Shown one piece after another: positions 4,922 through 35,909 of a stretch of 64,000 bases of DNA. The notes below the pieces were generated by a model that did no database searches, was not told the origin of the DNA, and worked only from the letters and a program-made list of their open reading frames with translations. The stretch's first letter is position 1. Every line of letters begins with the position of its first letter. The DNA is from Alphaproteobacteria bacterium (lineage in GTDB: Bacteria > Pseudomonadota > Alphaproteobacteria > Ferrovibrionales > Ferrovibrionaceae), in assembly GCA_947473805.1 (NCBI GenBank), contig CANJGB010000001.1, positions 103,413 to 167,412 of the forward strand, given 5' to 3'. The translations under genes and the position numbers were made by a program.

Positions 4922-5881
4922 ATGTCTCTTCCCGCGATTTTCCAGGGTCGGCTGTCGCTGCCGGTCATTGCCTCGCCGATGTTCATAGTCTCGACGCCGG
5001 AACTGGTTATCGAACAGTGCAAGGCCGGTATCGTCGGCACCATGCCGTCGCTGAATGCGCGCGAGGCCGACCAGTTCAAACCCTATCTCGTGCGCATCAA
5101 GCAGGAGCTCGCGGACTATGCGGCGGTAAACCCGGGTAAGCCGGTCGCGCCTTACGGTATCAACCTGATTGTCCACAAGACCAACAACCGGCTTGAGCAT
5201 GACCTGGAGGTCTGCGTCCGTCAGAAGGTGCCGCTTATCATCACCTCGCTCGGCGCCTCCAAGACGGTGATCGACAAGATCCACGCCTATGGCGGCATCG
5301 TGCTGCACGACGTCGTCAACATGCGTCACGCCCGCAAGGCGATCTCCGAGGGCGTCGACGGGCTGATCCCCGTCTGCGCCGGCGCCGGCGGCCACGCCGG
5401 CGCGCTCAGTCCGTTCGCCATCGTCCGCGAACTGCGCACTTTCTACAGCGGCATTATCGCGCTGTCCGGCGCGATCAGCGATGGTGCGGGCGTGCTGGGC
5501 GCCCTCGCCATGGGTGCCGACTTCGCCTATATCGGCTCGCGCTTTATCGCGACGCAGGAATCCGGCGCGAAGCCCGAATACAAGCAGATGGTGGTCGAGG
5601 CCAATGCCGCCGACATCATTTACACGCCGCTCTTCACCGGCGTGCCGGCCAACTATCTGCGCCCGACCATCGTGAACGCCGGTCTCGATCCCGAAAACCT
5701 GCCGCACCGCGAGAAGGACACGATGAGCTTCGCCGAGGGCAACCCCCGGCCGAAGGCATGGCGCGACGTCTGGGGCTGCGGCCAGGGCATCGGCACGGTC
5801 ACCGACATTCCTGCGACCGCCGACCTGGTTGCCCGCATGGCGGCGCAATATGCCGAGGCGAAGAAGCGCATCTGCGCCTAG
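4922..5881 (+). CDS. nitronate monooxygenase (NMO/2-nitropropane dioxygenase family, FMN-dependent)
   Basis: LPVIASPMFIVSTPELVIEQCKAGIVGTMPSLNAR and GLIPVCAGAGGHAG are NMO family motifs. Confidence 0.85.
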   Translation: MSLPAIFQGRLSLPVIASPMFIVSTPELVIEQCKAGIVGTMPSLNAREADQFKPYLVRIKQELADYAAVNPGKPVAPYGINLIVHKTNNRLEHDLEVCVRQKVPLIITSLGASKTVIDKIHAYGGIVLHDVVNMRHARKAISEGVDGLIPVCAGAGGHAGALSPFAIVRELRTFYSGIIALSGAISDGAGVLGALAMGADFAYIGSRFIATQESGAKPEYKQMVVEANAADIIYTPLFTGVPANYLRPTIVNAGLDPENLPHREKDTMSFAEGNPRPKAWRDVWGCGQGIGTVTDIPATADLVARMAAQYAEAKKRICA

Positions 5882-5984: not shown

Positions 5985-6953
5985 ATGATGGTCAAAGCTT
6001 CAGGTCTTGCAGGCGTACTCGTCGCCACGGCGCTCGGTCTTGTCGCTGTGCCGGCCCGGGCGGAATATCCGGAAAAGCCGATCACCCTAGTGGTCGGCTT
6101 TGCAGCCGGTGGCGTCAGCGACATCCTGGCTCGCACGCTGGCGGATAAGATGCAGCAACGCATGGGGCAGACGGTCATCGTCGACAACCGGCCGGGTGCA
6201 GCCGGCGTCATCGCGGCAAGCTTCGTGGCAAAGGCCGCACCCGATGGTTACACGCTGTTCCCGCAAGGCGGGTCAACCTTTTCGGAGACCTTTATCAAGG
6301 ATCCGCCGATCAATATGTTCCGCGACTTCGAACCCGTCACGCTCGTCAGCATCTTCCCGATGGCATTGCTGACCAACGACCAGGTTCCTGCCAGGGATTT
6401 GAAGGAGTTCATCGACTACGCGAAGAAAAATCCAGGCAAGCTCAACTACGGCTCGTCAGGTTCCAACAATCTTCTCGCTGTCGAGATGTTCAAAAAGATT
6501 GCGGGCATCGACCTGACGCAGATCTCCTACAAGGGCAATTCCGATTCAGCCCGTGCCCTGCTGGCCAACGAAGTGCAGCTTCTGGTCGATCCGATCTTGG
6601 CACACCTCGGCAATCTGAAGGAGGGCAAGGTCCGCCCGCTCGCGGTTGCGGCCGAGACGCGCTCGCCCATTCTCCCCAACGTGCCCACGACGGTCGAACT
6701 CGGCTATCCGGGTTTTCTCGCCAATGCAAACACCGGGATGTGGGCGCCCAAAGGCACGCCGAAGGCGATTATCGAGAAGCTGAATCGAGAACTCGGCGTC
6801 ATTCTCGCCATGCCGGACGTGAAGGAGAAGTTCATGACACTCGCCGGCGCGGCGACGTCACATTCTACGCCGGAGGCCTTCGCCGAATTCATCCGCAAGG
6901 ACCAGGCGTTCTGGGCCGAGGCGGCCAAGGCGGCGAACTACAGGCCGGAATAA
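5985..6953 (+). CDS. Bug family tripartite tricarboxylate transporter substrate-binding protein (TctC-like)
   Basis: Signal peptide MMVKASGLAGVLVATALGLVAVPARA, then EYPEKPITLVVGFAAGGVSDILARTLA...VIVDNRPGAAG. AGGGAGA lies upstream of the ATG at 5985. An alternative ATG is at 5952. Confidence 0.9.
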   Translation: MMVKASGLAGVLVATALGLVAVPARAEYPEKPITLVVGFAAGGVSDILARTLADKMQQRMGQTVIVDNRPGAAGVIAASFVAKAAPDGYTLFPQGGSTFSETFIKDPPINMFRDFEPVTLVSIFPMALLTNDQVPARDLKEFIDYAKKNPGKLNYGSSGSNNLLAVEMFKKIAGIDLTQISYKGNSDSARALLANEVQLLVDPILAHLGNLKEGKVRPLAVAAETRSPILPNVPTTVELGYPGFLANANTGMWAPKGTPKAIIEKLNRELGVILAMPDVKEKFMTLAGAATSHSTPEAFAEFIRKDQAFWAEAAKAANYRPE

Positions 6954-29680: not shown

Positions 29681-30028
29681 ATGGCGGCCCGTTACGGCTA
29701 CACCATGGGCAGGCGCGAAATGCGCCGCAACCGGCGCGCGGCGCGGCCCCATTTGCGGGTCGAGATCGGCGGCGGCGAGTTCGATGTCATGAACTGGTCG
29801 CTGGGCGGCGTGCTGGTCGCGGCCGGCGAGGCTGCCTGCACCTTCACGGATGGCGCGGTTCTGCCGGGCGTGCTGAAGCGCGCGACCGACCCGGACCGGG
29901 TGGAATTCACCGCCAGCGTCATCCGCGCCGATACCGACGCCGGCCAACTGGCCCTGATGTTCGAGGCGTTGGACGAGGGCCTGTTCGCCTTCTTCGAACG
30001 TTGCATGGCCGCCGCGCTGAGGCGTTGA
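29681..30028 (+). CDS. single-domain PilZ protein (candidate c-di-GMP receptor)
   Basis: RRNRR (RxxxR) followed by NWSLGG (D/N-x-S-x-x-G) at canonical spacing. Confidence 0.7.
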   Translation: MAARYGYTMGRREMRRNRRAARPHLRVEIGGGEFDVMNWSLGGVLVAAGEAACTFTDGAVLPGVLKRATDPDRVEFTASVIRADTDAGQLALMFEALDEGLFAFFERCMAAALRR

Positions 30029-30038
30029 GGAATTGACC

Positions 30039-31052
30039 ATGAATCTGCAGTTCGGCACGGTCGGCTTCTACAACGAGCTCGACGGCTACCTCGAATGGCT
30101 GAAAGTGGCCGAGGGGCTGGGCTACGACCTCGCCTGTTACGGCGACACCCAGAACCTGATGCCCGACATGTTCGTCGGCCTGACCGCCGCGGCGATGACG
30201 TCGAAGCGCATCCGCCTGGCCTCCACCGTGTCCAACACCGTCACCCGCCACCCGGCTGTGATGGCCAGCGGCATCGCGGGGGTGCAGAAACTCTCCGGGG
30301 GCCGGTTCTCGTTCGGTGTCGCGACTGGCGACAGCGCGCTGCGCACGATCGGCGAGAAGCCGGCCAAGATGGCCGACTTCGAGGCCTATTGCCGGGTCTT
30401 GCGGACGCTCTGCAACGGCGAGGAGGCCGACTGGCGCGGCAACAAGTTCAGGCTGAACTGGCCGGTCGTCCCGGTACCCATCTGGTTCGCCGCCGAGGGA
30501 CCGAAGATGATGCACCTCGCCGGCCAGCTGGCTGACGGCGTGATCTTCGCCCATGGCGCCAGCGAGGAGGTGGTGAAGGACAGCATCCGCCGCGTGCACG
30601 ACGGCGCGCGCTCTGCCGGCCGCAAGCCGGAGGATGTCGAGATCTGGTTCTTCGTGAAGCCATACTTCGCGGAAACCGAGGAGGCTGCCTGGCGCGAAGT
30701 GTCGTGGACCATGGCCGCCAGCGCCAACCACGCCTTCCGTTTCAGCATGGAGGGCAAGTTCGTGCCCGAGCATCTGCAGCCCGGCATGCGCCGGTTGATG
30801 GAAGGCTACAATTCCAACGAACACAACCAGTCGGGCAAGACTGCGAACAACGCGCGCATCGTCGAGGAAAACGGCCTGCTCGAATTTCTCGGCCGCCGCT
30901 TCCTAGTGGGCGGACCGACCGACCTGATTATCGAGCGCCTGAAACAGATCGCCTCATGGGGCGCGACCAACATGATTTTCCCCGCCGTCTACGGCGACAA
31001 GATCGGCTACACGACGCGTTTGTGGAACGATGTGCTGACCAAAATGAGATAG
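30039..31052 (+). CDS. LLM class (luciferase-like) flavin/F420-dependent oxidoreductase
   Basis: TIM-barrel LLM pattern: FGTVGFYN...LAGQLADGVIF...LVGGPTDLIIERLKQ. ATG at 30039 (a TTG is at 30033). Confidence 0.8.
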   Translation: MNLQFGTVGFYNELDGYLEWLKVAEGLGYDLACYGDTQNLMPDMFVGLTAAAMTSKRIRLASTVSNTVTRHPAVMASGIAGVQKLSGGRFSFGVATGDSALRTIGEKPAKMADFEAYCRVLRTLCNGEEADWRGNKFRLNWPVVPVPIWFAAEGPKMMHLAGQLADGVIFAHGASEEVVKDSIRRVHDGARSAGRKPEDVEIWFFVKPYFAETEEAAWREVSWTMAASANHAFRFSMEGKFVPEHLQPGMRRLMEGYNSNEHNQSGKTANNARIVEENGLLEFLGRRFLVGGPTDLIIERLKQIASWGATNMIFPAVYGDKIGYTTRLWNDVLTKMR

Positions 31053-31060
31053 GGGCCGTC

Positions 31061-31471
31061 ATGAACCGGTACGCCGTATCACTGGCCGTTCTGCTGCTTG
31101 CCGGCTGCGCCACGGGCAGCGGTGCGCCGCAACTCGAGAACACCACCTGGAACCTCGTCGCTCTCGATGGCGTGCGGGTGAGCGATGGTGTCGGCACGCC
31201 CTACATCCTGCTGCAATCGGCCGAGAAGCGCGTGACCGGTTCCGGCGGCTGCAACCGTATGAACGGCACCTATGTGCTTGATCGCACCGCGCTGACCTTC
31301 GGCCCGGTCGCCGCCACCAAGATGGCCTGCATCAATGCCGGCAAGGTCGAGGACCGCTTTTTCACCACGCTTGGCGCGGTGCGCAACTGGCGGCTCGAGG
31401 GCGCGCATCTCACGCTGCTCGGCGGCACCGGCACGAAGCTCGCGGAATTCGACGCCGCGCCACCGCGCTAA
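31061..31471 (+). CDS. META domain (HslJ-like) lipoprotein
   Basis: Lipobox LLLAGC, then NTTWNLVALDG...RVTGSGGCNRMNGTY...FGPVAATKMAC. Confidence 0.82.
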   Translation: MNRYAVSLAVLLLAGCATGSGAPQLENTTWNLVALDGVRVSDGVGTPYILLQSAEKRVTGSGGCNRMNGTYVLDRTALTFGPVAATKMACINAGKVEDRFFTTLGAVRNWRLEGAHLTLLGGTGTKLAEFDAAPPR

Positions 31472-31476
31472 CCCTC

Positions 31477-31507
31477 AAATGAAAACGGCCCGTCTCGCGA
31501 CGGGCCG
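31477..31507 (-). terminator. intrinsic terminator after the ABC substrate-binding protein gene
   Basis: Minus strand CGGCCCGTC-GCGA-GACGGGCCG followed by TTTTCATTTG. Confidence 0.5.
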
Positions 31508-31532
31508 CTCCACATCTAGCTAGTACCGATGC

Positions 31533-32726
31533 TTACGGGCAATCGACCCGGCGCAGCAGGCCATCGGCCCGCGGCTTGTTGAAATCGGCGATCATGGCCA
31601 GCGACTTCACGCCGTACGCGAAGTGGTTGTCCTTGCTCACCTCGGCGGTGCCGCCGACCAGGCCGGTCAGCTTCGCCGAATTGCCCTCGATCCACTTGGC
31701 GATGGTCGGGCCGTCGGTCTTGCCGCCGGTGCCGAGGTACGCCGCCTTGAAGATATAGGCCGCGTCGTACATGTAGATGACGCTCAGCGGATCGGCCTTC
31801 GTGCCGGGCGCCGCCGCCTCGAGCTTCTTCTTGAACTGCGGCACCGGACCGGCCTCCAGCGGGTCCTTCGGGCAATAGGTGCTGACCTTCGACAGTACGC
31901 CGACCATGCCTTCCAGCGCGCTGTCGCCGGCGATGGTCGAGATCACGCGGTGCAGCGCGGTGGCTGCGATGTTGCCGACGAAGATCGGGTTCCAGCCGAT
32001 CTGCGCCATGCCCTTGCGGGTATTGGCGATGGCTTCGCCGCTGCCGCTGAACATCAGCAGCGCCTGCGGGTCGCCGCGGCGCAGTTTCAAAAGCTGCGGC
32101 AGAAGGTCGGTCTCCTGCAGGCTGATCTGCTCGATGCCCGTCACGTTCATCTTGCGGGCCTCGAGTTCCGCCTTCAGGGCCGCGCCGCCTTCCTTGCCGA
32201 AGGTGCCGTCGTCGTTCAGCACCGCGACAGACTTGGCCTTCATCACGTTCTGCACGTAATTGGCCATGACCTTGGCCTGCAACGCCGCGGTGGCCAGCAG
32301 GCTGAAGTGATAGGGCGCGAATTCCGGCGTCAGAATGCTGGCGCCCGCCGCGCTGACCGACGCGATCTTGGCTTCGTTCAGCACCTGGATGCCGGGCAGG
32401 GTGGTGATGCTGGACGACGGCCCCAGCAGGAAGGCGATCTTCTCCTGGTAGACCAGGCGGCGGGTTTCGGCTGCGGCCTGGGTGGCGTTGTTCTGGTCGT
32501 CACCGATGACCAGTTCCAGCTTGTGGCCATCGAGCCCGCCGGCCGTGTTGATTTCCTTGATGGCGATCTCGGCGCCCAGCCGCGCAGCAAGGCCGTTTGC
32601 CGGCGCGCCGGTGATCGAGGTGAGCAAGCCGACCTTGATCGGCTCCTTGCCCTGCGCGAAGGCGGCGGTGCCCAGCGTCAGCAGCGCGAGGGCGGCGACG
32701 CCGCCCAGCATGAACTTCTTCATCAT
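31533..32726 (-). CDS. ABC transporter substrate-binding protein (LivK/branched-chain amino acid type)
   Basis: Signal peptide MMKKFMLGGVAALALLTLGTAAFAQ, then EPIKVGLLTSITG...AEIAIKEINTAGGLDGHKLELVIGDDQ. Confidence 0.85.
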   Translation of the reverse strand: MMKKFMLGGVAALALLTLGTAAFAQGKEPIKVGLLTSITGAPANGLAARLGAEIAIKEINTAGGLDGHKLELVIGDDQNNATQAAAETRRLVYQEKIAFLLGPSSSITTLPGIQVLNEAKIASVSAAGASILTPEFAPYHFSLLATAALQAKVMANYVQNVMKAKSVAVLNDDGTFGKEGGAALKAELEARKMNVTGIEQISLQETDLLPQLLKLRRGDPQALLMFSGSGEAIANTRKGMAQIGWNPIFVGNIAATALHRVISTIAGDSALEGMVGVLSKVSTYCPKDPLEAGPVPQFKKKLEAAAPGTKADPLSVIYMYDAAYIFKAAYLGTGGKTDGPTIAKWIEGNSAKLTGLVGGTAEVSKDNHFAYGVKSLAMIADFNKPRADGLLRRVDCP

Positions 32727-32752
32727 TGTCTCCCCTGAGTGTTGTTTGATTC

Positions 32753-33652
32753 TTACAAGAACGCGTAACGGTGTTCGGGGATGCCCTTGGCACCCACGTC
32801 GCAACGGAAAATGGCGCCGGCATTCGGCTCGCGCGGGGCGTCGGGCTTCATCGGATCGACCACCGACGTGGTGACGAACATGGTCTTCAGGTCCGGCCCG
32901 CCGAACGCGATCATGGTCGGCAGCATGGTCGGCGCCTTCAGCTCGCGGTCCAGTTCGCCGTTCGGCTTGAAGCGCACGATCAGGCCCGAGCGGTAATAGG
33001 CCAGCCAGTAGCCGCCCTCAGAGTCCACCGCCGCGCCGTCGGGGATGTACCCGGCCGGCACGGTGCAGAACTTGCGCCGGTTGCTGACCGTGCCGTCCTT
33101 GACGTTGAAGTCGAACGCGGTGATTTGCCACTTCGGGCGGTCGGCCACATACATGGTCTTGCCGTCCGGGCTCCAGGCGATGCCGTTGGCCATGGTGATG
33201 TCGTCGATTACTGGCACCAGGCCGCGGTCATCCATGCGATAGAAAAAGCCCGAACCGTCCGGCGCCTTCGCGCCCAGGCGGCGGCGCGTGCCAACCCAGA
33301 AGCGGCCGGCTGGATCGCAGCGGCCGTCATTGTACTGATGGTTGGTGACGTCGTAGGTCGCCTCGTTCAGCTTTTTCGTCGCGCCTGTCGTCATGTTCAG
33401 CGAGAAGATGCCGGTCTCGAGCGAGACCACGGCCATGTCGCGCTGCTTGCACAGGACGAAGCTGCCAATTTCTTCGGGCGTCAGCCATTCGCGGGTCTGG
33501 GTGTCGGCGATGGTCTTGCCGAACGTGGTGCGGTTTAGCGACGGGCGGAACCCGTCGATCCAGTAAAGCGCCTGCTCGTCCTCAAACCAGAACGGCACCT
33601 CGCCGAGACCGGCCTTGGCGTCGAGGACGCACTCCCACTTTGGCTGTTCCAC
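32753..33652 (-). CDS. SMP-30/gluconolactonase/LRE family protein
   Basis: LGEVPFWFEDEQALYWIDG, NDGRCDPAGRFWVGT and ANGIAWSPDGKTMYVAD are six-bladed propeller motifs. GTG start preceded by GGAGG. Confidence 0.87.
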   Translation of the reverse strand: MEQPKWECVLDAKAGLGEVPFWFEDEQALYWIDGFRPSLNRTTFGKTIADTQTREWLTPEEIGSFVLCKQRDMAVVSLETGIFSLNMTTGATKKLNEATYDVTNHQYNDGRCDPAGRFWVGTRRRLGAKAPDGSGFFYRMDDRGLVPVIDDITMANGIAWSPDGKTMYVADRPKWQITAFDFNVKDGTVSNRRKFCTVPAGYIPDGAAVDSEGGYWLAYYRSGLIVRFKPNGELDRELKAPTMLPTMIAFGGPDLKTMFVTTSVVDPMKPDAPREPNAGAIFRCDVGAKGIPEHRYAFL

Positions 33653-33754
33653 TGTTTCCTCCCGCGACGTAAAGCCCGGCGAATGTATTACAGATGCCGC
33701 GCGGTTATTGCGAAAAAATTAGAACCCTGGCGTGAAACAAACTCCGCGATGCGC

Positions 33755-33812
33755 ATCAAGCCGCGAGCTTGTGCAGTTCCCTGATAGGCAGCTCGCCCAT
33801 CTGGACGGTGCC
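33755..33812 (-). repeat. decayed copy of the leuB 3' end (last 18 codons plus stop)
   Basis: 52/58 identical to 34796-34853. Translates [18 protein letters not shown] versus the leuB C-terminus [18 protein letters not shown]. Confidence 0.85.
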
Positions 33813-33821
33813 GGGGAAGGA

Positions 33822-34517
33822 TCAGCGTTCTGGCAAAAGCCACTGGCCGGTTCTGCAGAAGTCCATCTGTCTCTTGTTAATTGAGCCGAACGGTTCTTCC
33901 TGCAACTCGAAGAGATGGACATCGCCTGCGGCCTCATGGTGATAGGCCCAGTTTCTTTTCAGGTACGCTTGCAGGAAACGCGCGTTCGCGGTTCGGCCGT
34001 CAATGACGACGAGCGTGCCGGGCTGTAGAAAAAACTCGAAGGTGACAATGTCCGCCGCAATCGGCATGCGTTCGGGGTTTGCAATCGTGAAACCACGCAC
34101 TTCCTGAGTCGTGGCGTATTGGGATGGCCCGTCAAGATAGATGAGGTCTGGCGAGATATTTGGCGAATTGGAATAAAGGGTGACGAACCTTGAGTCGATT
34201 TGCGTCAGCTCGACCGAACTCCGGTACAGCGAGGCAAAAGGTTTTAGCTCGGCCGAGAGGCGGTTTGCCGTGACGTCGAGAAAGCTTTGCTCTTCCTCCA
34301 CCGAGTGGACATGAAAAGGCTTCTGGCATCGCAGCTTCTTCTTGGCCCAGTCGCCGTAGAAGCGGTCCAGCAGGCTTAGGGCGTGGGCGAATATCGCGGT
34401 GGAAAAGCCTGAGCCGTATTCCAGAACGGAAACGGTTCTGCGGTGAAGGGCCAGCCAATGCAGACGGCAAAGATCATCGACTTTGGGCTCGAACGGCTTG
34501 TCCTCTGAGGGAGACAC
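33822..34517 (-). CDS. class I SAM-dependent methyltransferase-like protein (possibly truncated; see in-frame TAG upstream)
   Basis: VLEYGSGFST resembles the SAM-binding motif I, and LIYLDGP resembles a post-I acidic strand. The sequence is AT-richer than its flanks. The frame continues upstream to the ATG at 34706 except for a TAG at 34610-34608. Confidence 0.5.
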   Translation of the reverse strand: MSPSEDKPFEPKVDDLCRLHWLALHRRTVSVLEYGSGFSTAIFAHALSLLDRFYGDWAKKKLRCQKPFHVHSVEEEQSFLDVTANRLSAELKPFASLYRSSVELTQIDSRFVTLYSNSPNISPDLIYLDGPSQYATTQEVRGFTIANPERMPIAADIVTFEFFLQPGTLVVIDGRTANARFLQAYLKRNWAYHHEAAGDVHLFELQEEPFGSINKRQMDFCRTGQWLLPER

Positions 34518-34796
34518 CGCTCGGGTCAGGTCAAGGTTACGGCTGCGTACCCTGTCCTGCTCGAGTTCTCGACAAAGCCGCTCTATGCCGAAAGCAGCTG
34601 AATAGCGCTAGCAGTGTTCACGATCATTGAAGCTCCCGAGGGTGTAGCCCTCAAGCAGGCGCGCAATTTCCTCGAAAGAACCGAATGATTTGGGGGAGAG
34701 AGTCATTGGATTGGCCTTGTGGAAAGCAACAATGTCTCATCGACAGTCTCCCGCGGCCAGGCACTCCAACGAGCCCGCAACTCGGGCGCGCCGTCA

Positions 34797-35909
34797 TCAG
34801 GCCGCGAGCTTGTCCAGCTCCTTGATCAGCAGCTCGCCCATCTGGACGGTGCCCACCTTGGTCTTGCCCGGCTGCATGATGTCGGGCGTACGGTACCCCG
34901 CCGCCAGCACGTTCTTGATACCCTTTTCGACCAGGTCAGCATCGTCCTGCAGGTCGAACGAATAGCGCAGCGCCATGGCGAAGCTCATCAGCGACGCGAT
35001 CGGATTGGCGACGCCCTTGCCGGCGATGTCAGGTGCCGACCCGTGGATCGGCTCGTACATGGCCAGGCGGCGGCCGGTCGCATCCGGCGCGCCCAGCGAT
35101 GCCGACGGCAGCATGCCCAATGAACCGGTCAGCATTGCCGCCTCGTCCGACAGCATGTCGCCGAACAGGTTGTCGGTGACCATGACGTCGAACTGCTTCG
35201 GGTTGCGCACCAGCTGCATGGCTCCATTGTCGGCCAGCATGTGCTCCAGCTGCACGTCGCTGTACTTCTCGGCGTGCAGCTTGGTGACCTCCTCCTTCCA
35301 GAGGATTCCGGATTCCATGACGTTGTTTTTTTCCAGCGACGTCACCTTGTTGCGGCGCTTGCGCGCCAGTTCGAAGGCGACGGCCGCCACGCGGTGGATT
35401 TCCGACGTGGTGTAGACCTGCGTGTTGACGCCGCGGCGCTGGCCGTCGGGCAGCGTCTCGATGCCGCGTGGCGTGCCGAAATAGACGCCGCCGGTCAGCT
35501 CGCGCACGATCATGATGTCGAGCCCGGCGACCAGTTCCGGCTTCAGCGACGACGCCTCGACCAGCGCCTCGAAGCACACGGCCGGGCGCAGGTTGGCGAA
35601 CAGGTCCATGTCCTTGCGCAGGCGCAGCAGCGCGCGTTCGGGCCGCTTGTCGAACGGCAGCTTGTCGTAGGTCGGGCCGCCCACGGCGCCGAACAGCACG
35701 CAGGCGCGGCTGAGCGCGGATTCCATCACCTTGTCGGTGATCGGCACGCCATGCTTGTCGTACGACGCGCCGCCGACCAGGTCCTCGGCGACGTCAAACG
35801 TCACCGCCCGGCGCTTGTCCATCCAGTTGATGACTTTGCGCACCTCGGCCATGCCCTCGGGGCCGATACCGTCGCCAGGAAGGATCAGCAGGCTCTTGTT
35901 CGCGGCCAT
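34797..35909 (-). CDS. leuB: 3-isopropylmalate dehydrogenase
   Basis: [12 protein letters not shown] and [27 protein letters not shown] motifs. Confidence 0.97.

Follow-up and report, generated by a model that had tools for sequence, protein, structure and literature searches.

How did about 1 kb of DNA holding a single gene come to lie directly behind leuB, with a copy of the leuB end on each side of it? The question is raised by a 64,000-nt stretch of the Alphaproteobacteria bacterium assembly GCA_947473805.1 (Ferrovibrionaceae; contig CANJGB010000001.1, positions 103,413 to 167,412), here called the window. An earlier note on this DNA had interpreted the arrangement as the scar of integrase-mediated, site-specific integration into the end of leuB, and our analysis divides that claim. 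Foreign DNA does lie in the leuB end and a gene end is present on both sides of it, but site-specific integration by an integrase is unsupported. The locus is a gene-gain scar rather than an active element, left when a foreign segment of about 1 kb entered leuB by recombination, 18 codons short of the stop. The insertion and the duplication can be read directly in the window, and relatives display the empty site. The inserted DNA has a foreign composition and lacks recombinase and transposon features, and its gene is broken but otherwise conserved. As to route, we tentatively favor host homologous recombination through a leuB tail present on the incoming DNA, to which we would give somewhat less than an even chance.

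A leuB tail on both sides of foreign DNA

The leuB gene encodes 3-isopropylmalate dehydrogenase and is intact (minus strand, 34797-35909; 370 aa; Pfam Iso_dh, E 2.3e-131), and its protein is 84-88% identical to its closest orthologues, all of which are metagenomic. Its 3' end forms one copy (R1, minus strand, 34795-34853) of a direct repeat, the other copy of which (R2, minus strand, 33754-33812) lies at the far end of the insert. The earlier note had reported a repeat of 58 nt with 52/58 identity, which is exact on its coordinates; the repeat extends to 59 nt, of which 53 are identical, and comprises the last 18 leuB codons, the stop codon and 2 further nucleotides. R2 still translates like a leuB end, and both translations quoted in the note are right. 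Searching the whole 3.3-Mb genome returned only these two copies of the tail, the second with an E value of 1.9e-15. Between them lie 982 nt containing a single open reading frame (ORF), hereafter the cargo gene.

The enclosed DNA is AT-richer than its surroundings, as had been noted, with a G+C fraction of 0.565 (over the 983 nt of the note's coordinates) compared to 0.66 for the window, and recounting reproduced the local values exactly (27/60 at 34141-34200 and 38/60 at 34861-34920). At third codon positions the cargo gene has a G+C fraction (GC3) of 0.66, whereas leuB reaches 0.91 and the SMP30 gene beyond R2 reaches 0.88, and the difference from leuB identifies the cargo gene as foreign. 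Because both repeat copies are host-like in GC3 and the cargo gene is low, the inserted unit is chimeric, joining a host-like leuB tail to foreign DNA. The same structure is present at 99.99-100% identity in four further assemblies from other samples, which rules out an assembly artefact, and all five assemblies of the source population therefore carry the insert.

Relatives that lack the insert provide the empty site for which the earlier note had recommended searching. In L099, 95 nt separate the leuB stop from the start of the SMP30 orthologue, and the corresponding gap in L241/L242 is 94 nt. These relatives are 12-15% diverged in nucleotide sequence, and the SMP30 orthologues directly behind leuB in L099 and L241 are 82-84% identical. 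The SMP30/gluconolactonase-family gene of the window, the native downstream neighbor of leuB (minus strand, 32753-33652; Pfam SGL, E 1.4e-66), begins about 100 nt from the R2 stop across a spacer (minus strand, 33653-33753) at the native leuB-SMP30 intergenic position. Since R2 stands about 100 nt upstream of this gene and the empty-site gap is 94-95 nt, R2 occupies the native position of the leuB end. The R2-SMP30 spacer and the empty-site spacers are similar in length, and their sequences are not alignable.

R1 is the working end of leuB: its residues fit the consensus of relatives, LL[LI]KELDKLAA, and its third codon positions are all G or C. R2 is a displaced, non-functional copy that differs from R1 at 6 nt, the changes being L>P, K>R and D>H together with two synonymous substitutions. 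The P and the H occur at conserved positions and are unlike every relative, and three of the six changes reduce GC3, a pattern that an unconstrained relic would be expected to show. Part of the difference between the copies may nevertheless date from the insertion event itself, because the K>R change and GAA are also found in relatives. The mismatches are not spread evenly. At the inner end of the repeat, R1 and R2 are identical over a block of 25 nt, and all six mismatches fall outside it, an outcome with a calculated chance of about 0.03; beyond the block, similarity is 82% until 2 nt past the stop, after which there is none.

The leuB stop is separated from the cargo ATG by an 88-nt spacer (minus strand, 34707-34794). 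Its first 50 nt or so are GC-rich, with a short hairpin (GCCCG-AGTTG-CGGGC), and the remainder is AT-richer; attempts to align it to the empty-site leuB-SMP30 spacers failed. At the right-hand junction of the insert only 9 nt (minus strand, 33813-33821) separate the cargo stop from R2. R2 shares its frame with the cargo ORF and lies 9 nt past the TGA of the latter (33754-33824).

The flank behind leuB is variable among relatives. In the window, 29681-33652 holds genes for SMP30, Peripla_BP_6, a META lipoprotein, a luciferase-like (LLM) oxidoreductase and PilZ, and the META gene is missing from the flank behind leuB in L241. Another relative, L100, has a PilZ gene behind leuB and a PAS_5 gene between leuD and leuB, and on the P0123 contig an LLM oxidoreductase gene abuts the leuB stop without a gap. 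In 40 GTDB relatives only the leuB part is matched, at about 75% identity or less, and the nearest match in a JGI metagenome scan with leuB is 74% identical.

The cargo gene

The cargo gene occupies a 294-codon frame on the minus strand (33822-34706), running from an ATG at 34706 to a TGA at 33822, and fills 885 of the 982 nt. The earlier count of one real ORF between the repeats holds, with the addition that this ORF is interrupted by an in-frame TAG at codon 33 (34608-34610), which is identical in the four other assemblies. The longest open part encodes 231 aa from a GTG at 34517. The TAG separates conserved N-terminal helices from this 231-aa remainder, and no obvious Shine-Dalgarno sequence lies upstream of the GTG. 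We identified 507 homologues of about 300 aa each, the best at 68% identity, and because their N-termini align across the TAG, the cargo gene is a full-length family member with one nonsense codon. It retains 60 of the 65 residues that are invariant in 15 homologues, compared to losses of 0-8 among intact members in a leave-one-out comparison, so selection acted on it until recently. R2, by comparison, differs from R1 at 10% of sites while the cargo gene keeps these family-invariant residues.

The cargo product is predicted to adopt a class I S-adenosylmethionine (SAM)-methyltransferase fold and belongs to a patchily distributed family. The AlphaFold2 model has a predicted local distance difference test (pLDDT) score of 80.5 and a predicted template modelling (pTM) score of 0.84, and a Foldseek comparison with the PDB gave 65 methyltransferase chains at E <= 0.001, including cation-dependent O-methyltransferases. 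The latter (Methyltransf_3/24; PDB 3dul and 4pca) share the same Rossmann-type fold, with Foldseek E values of about 1e-5 and TM scores of 0.5-0.57 on the target; the cargo product, however, is only 12-14% identical to them and has an additional helical region, about 90 residues long, at its N-terminus. Its motifs include LEYGSGFS (motif I), an acidic loop VEEE, and DLIYLDGPS. We found no Pfam, NCBIfam, PHROG or PADLOC model for the family; the match of the cargo product to Methyltransf_24 (PF13578) is sub-threshold, at 17.8 versus 26.3 bits, and precomputed matches to PF13578 are present in just 3 of 120 listed homologues. The closest homologues have capsule-synthesis, NeuB, cytidylyltransferase and polysaccharide-deacetylase genes as neighbors, from which a role in surface-sugar modification is likely. 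Assignment to a defence-system or phage family was rejected, there being no match to either. Cultured phages and plasmids likewise gave no match, and bracketing repeats are absent from the 23 IMG/VR contigs that carry cargo homologues.

Routes of entry into leuB

The inserted segment of about 1 kb came from a lower-GC source and carries one stand-alone methyltransferase-fold gene, of a family normally found in capsule and nonulosonic-acid sugar clusters. In the account that we favor, it would also have brought its own leuB tail, presumably from a related high-GC host. Recombination through this tail would leave leuB ending in the intact R1, and R2 would be stranded before SMP30 at its native position, decaying. 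Two forms of the event can be envisaged. The first is a single Campbell-type crossover of a small circle inside the 25-nt perfect block; the second, homology-facilitated illegitimate recombination (HFIR), would be anchored by homology and have its illegitimate junction 9 nt past the cargo stop. That the mismatches lie outside the 25-nt block fits a crossover within the longest identical stretch of the repeat, and the coincidence of the repeat end with the gene end, like the clustering of the mismatches, would follow from incoming DNA that carried a gene end. After entry, transcription of the cargo gene was probably by read-through from the leuCDB operon, since our search for a promoter-like site in the 88-nt spacer ahead of it found none. 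The gene was under selection for a time, and the TAG at codon 33 has since knocked it out.

Both forms have laboratory counterparts. As outlined in PMC2884548 from the work of de Vries & Wackernagel (2002) and Prudhomme et al. (2002), HFIR joins DNA through a homology anchor on one side and without homology on the other, as the leuB insert would require; in the Campbell alternative described there, a circle that bears a gene's 3' fragment integrates by a single crossover. The outcome in both cases is an intact gene, an insert and a copy of the 3' fragment, which in anatomy matches the leuB locus as well as a Helicobacter locus (L170) considered below. These processes were defined in the laboratory in naturally transformable species, however, whereas at leuB they are deduced from the scar alone.

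Several observations count against this account. No donor with leuB beside a cargo gene was found among about 110 homologue loci, so the account offers no explanation for the original placement of the gene behind a leuB. RecA-mediated crossover within just 25 identical bases is inefficient. A comparison aimed at a mosaic leuB, with a donor-derived 3' part, by sliding-window and third-position identity against L099 and L100, with five neighbor genes as background, gave a result within noise. Moreover, relatives with more than 90% nucleotide identity and without the insert are lacking, so that recent and old gain are not separable. Finally, an identical core with imperfect similarity beyond it, as far as the stop, is exactly what an integrase attachment (att) site looks like when the element supplies the gene end; e14 in icd is the classic case.

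The last point leads to the main alternative, in which a tyrosine or serine integrase acted on an attP that mimicked the leuB end and supplied a replacement tail, and the rest of the element was later deleted or an integrase-less mini-element was moved in trans, in the style of cis-mobilizable elements (CIMEs) and the H47 island. We consider this possible but unlikely. The anatomy equals that of attL and attR, given the 25-nt perfect inner block, the 82% similarity to 2 nt past the stop and its abrupt loss thereafter, and the closest precedent, e14, involves a target gene of the same protein family. In E. coli, e14 (like phage 21) places foreign DNA in the 3' end of icd, another gene of the Iso_dh family (PF00180), supplies a working replacement end, and leaves imperfect direct repeats with a short pseudo-copy on the far side, a 163-bp pseudo-icd (Hill et al. 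1989, as described in PMC6379469). By this analogy the leuB scar is structurally like e14 in icd, minus the recombinase. However, e14 is about 15 kb long and encodes its own integrase and excisionase, whereas the leuB insert is 1 kb long and has one metabolic-type gene. The icd site is also reused by related phages, but none of the 64 other leuB loci whose downstream sequence extends to 300 nt or more has a second leuB tail.

Recombinase-free islands offer another parallel. The leuB insert has att-like direct repeats at both ends and a recombinase-free interior, the features by which CIMEs and H47-type islands are recognized; it shares with them long imperfect direct repeats within which exchange would be expected in blocks of identity. 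Integrase-less islands with such repeats do move in recA-deficient cells, as was demonstrated for the 13-kb H47 island, for which RecA-free excision and integration were established by experiment and att sites are widespread in E. coli (PMC3191183). The leuB insert differs from H47 in showing no sign of mobility, in having a housekeeping-gene end as its repeat, and in that no helper was found.

A search of the insert and its genome for the necessary machinery argues against the integrase route, and with it against the mechanism proposed in the earlier note. The insert contains no integrase or recombinase, its sole ORF being methyltransferase-fold, and no integrase remnant; loss by deletion would need end points no farther from the cargo gene than 88 nt on one side and 9 nt on the other. 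Three PF00589 genes are present in the genome (C31, C4 and C1:214680), none of them near, the closest being 77 kb away. The 3.3-Mb assembly contains neither a third repeat copy nor a helper element bearing this att; it is 95% complete, so that a helper on the missing DNA is possible. An RNA-gene target was rejected because the window has no tRNA, tmRNA or Rfam match.

Other vehicles were also considered and set aside. The insert ends carry no terminal inverted repeats, and nothing above chance resembles a promoter or terminator at the unit boundaries. A transposon, insertion sequence (IS) or miniature inverted-repeat transposable element (MITE) was rejected for want of inverted repeats and a transposase, and because the homologous loci have duplications of anything between 19 and 171 nt, rather than of one fixed length, and unrelated termini. 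An integron cassette was rejected since just 9 nt separate the cargo stop from the repeat, with no inverted repeat reported there, and the Rhodobacter capsulatus-type gene transfer agent (RcGTA) was rejected as a vector because the GTA_TIM domain was not found.

The same gene family at other sites

Comparison with other members of the family bears on all of these routes. We screened about 76 homologue loci from species genomes for bracketing direct repeats and found several that are tightly bracketed, including three unrelated sites in other phyla at which cargo homologues lie between duplicated ends of neighboring genes. The repeats range from 19 to 171 nt and are unrelated in sequence between sites, and the insert termini have no common motif. 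A single dedicated recombinase or transposase acting at all of these sites therefore seems unlikely, and the finding that the same cargo family is bracketed elsewhere by unrelated repeats, one of which consists of a ribosome-binding site (RBS) and the 5' coding end of a gene, weighs further against an integrase at leuB.

One of the three sites, on the contrary, favors the integrase route. At L145 the duplication that brackets the homologue is the 3' end of a tRNA-like gene, with the 171-nt repeat (5482-5652 and 6751-6921, 95% identical) stopping exactly at the 3' end of that gene, in its tRNA-like domain. The domain is not called by ARAGORN and scores 31.5 bits with the Rfam tRNA model and 20.9 bits with that for tmRNA. 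The L145 contig ends 170 nt past the second repeat copy, and a larger island may follow; the same genome (G043) has a second copy of the gene family at L155.

In the Acidimicrobiia, 13 genomes have the homologue between mnmA and a convergently oriented membrane-protein gene, and in 3 of these the shared gene end is duplicated (54, 24 and 19 nt) with 100% identity: L132, 5873-5926 and 6815-6868; L141, 2726-2749 and 3618-3641; and L134, 1325-1343 and 2180-2198. In Acidimicrobiia relatives without the homologue, mnmA and the membrane-protein gene are adjacent and often overlap, by up to 49-70 nt, so that, as judged from these arrangements, both genes would stay whole only if an insertion duplicates the overlap. 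The mnmA-site repeats are identical within a genome and different between genomes, the order mnmA, gene, membrane-protein gene and ligA is common to all 13, and identity within a genome would require either repeated re-insertion or gene conversion. In the sister genomes L136 and L138 only a diverged repeat remnant of about 19 nt is left. Acidimicrobiia ORFs of the family terminate inside the distal repeat or at most 2 nt from it. At L134 (135-2177), mnmA and the methyltransferase-like gene form one 680-aa frame that contains masked bases (N) and is possibly an artefact.

The third site is in Helicobacter. Relative to L169, the L170 locus has 147 nt of extra DNA upstream of the gene, placed at a 9-nt RBS motif; this DNA includes 115 nt that repeat the downstream gene's RBS and its first 33 codons, followed by 35 nt of unrelated DNA. 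The structure looks like what HFIR would be expected to leave, one side having been joined by homologous crossover and the other illegitimately. The RBS 9-mer, TTAAAGGAG, occurs upstream of several Helicobacter glycan-cluster genes and flanks both ends of the 147-nt segment (L170, 5782-5955; L169, 5936-5955).

The mnmA site also bears on a further alternative, in which the target was duplicated de novo. Here DNA would have been captured at a staggered double-strand break or by template switching at a replication fork, with a 58-nt overhang filled in (for example by Ku/LigD end joining), so that the two copies were identical at first and R2 decayed later. Between convergent overlapping genes such as those at mnmA, only events that duplicate the overlap would survive. 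At leuB, the derived P and H of R2 and the three changes that lower GC3 are as expected under neutral decay, and the genome encodes Ku. The Ku region (G000:C20:5476-5970) lies within a 618-aa open frame, which is unusually long for a bacterial Ku. Nevertheless we regard de novo duplication as improbable. The mismatches are clustered rather than spread, and the repeat stops 2 nt past the leuB stop despite a spacer of about 100 nt, just as the L145 repeat ends at the end of an RNA gene; de novo duplication makes both of these coincidences. Overhangs of 58-171 nt are far beyond known end-joining substrates, and Helicobacter, the genus of L170, is generally not known to encode Ku. Host recombination through an incoming leuB tail, our preferred account, does not treat the position of the repeat end as chance.

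The recurrence of bracketed family members suggests one more possibility, a minimal mobile cassette in which the gene and its carried tail leave as a circle of about 1 kb through the flanking repeats and re-enter related genomes through the captured tail. We think this very improbable. It would be in keeping with the duplicated gene ends that bracket this one family at four independent sites, an arrangement shown by none of the roughly 790 other ORFs of these loci, and with repeats that are 100% identical in three Acidimicrobiia genomes amid synteny common to 13. The control ORFs are mostly core genes, however, and in E. coli, S. aureus and S. pyogenes the published share of small variable segments that have flanking direct repeats is already 10-18% (PMC2884548). 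For both reasons we do not claim that the family is special, and family-specific mobility was not relied on. In addition, no circle and no polymorphism among near-identical strains are seen, there is no second copy, and the predicted excised allele, a leuB ending in the R2 tail, was absent on exact look-up in a protein collection; the cargo product has an ordinary enzyme fold.

A broader version of this idea would be a widespread and undescribed class of recombinase-less one-gene cassettes, moved by host recombination or by an enzyme acting in trans. This too is a proposition to which we attach little probability. If true, such a class would explain the duplicated ends at leuB, at mnmA, at the tRNA-like gene and at the Helicobacter glycan gene, as well as the 100% identical repeats in some genomes with old synteny.

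The leuB locus provides a clear and well-bounded case in which an accessory gene entered without disrupting an essential gene, with both the filled and the empty site in hand. The occurrence of the same type of scar, for one gene family, at unrelated sites in four bacterial lineages gives it comparative value. Should insertions of this kind, lacking a recombinase and duplicating a gene tail, prove frequent, they would constitute an under-counted route of gene gain, and would also lead genomic-island predictors to false "att site" calls.

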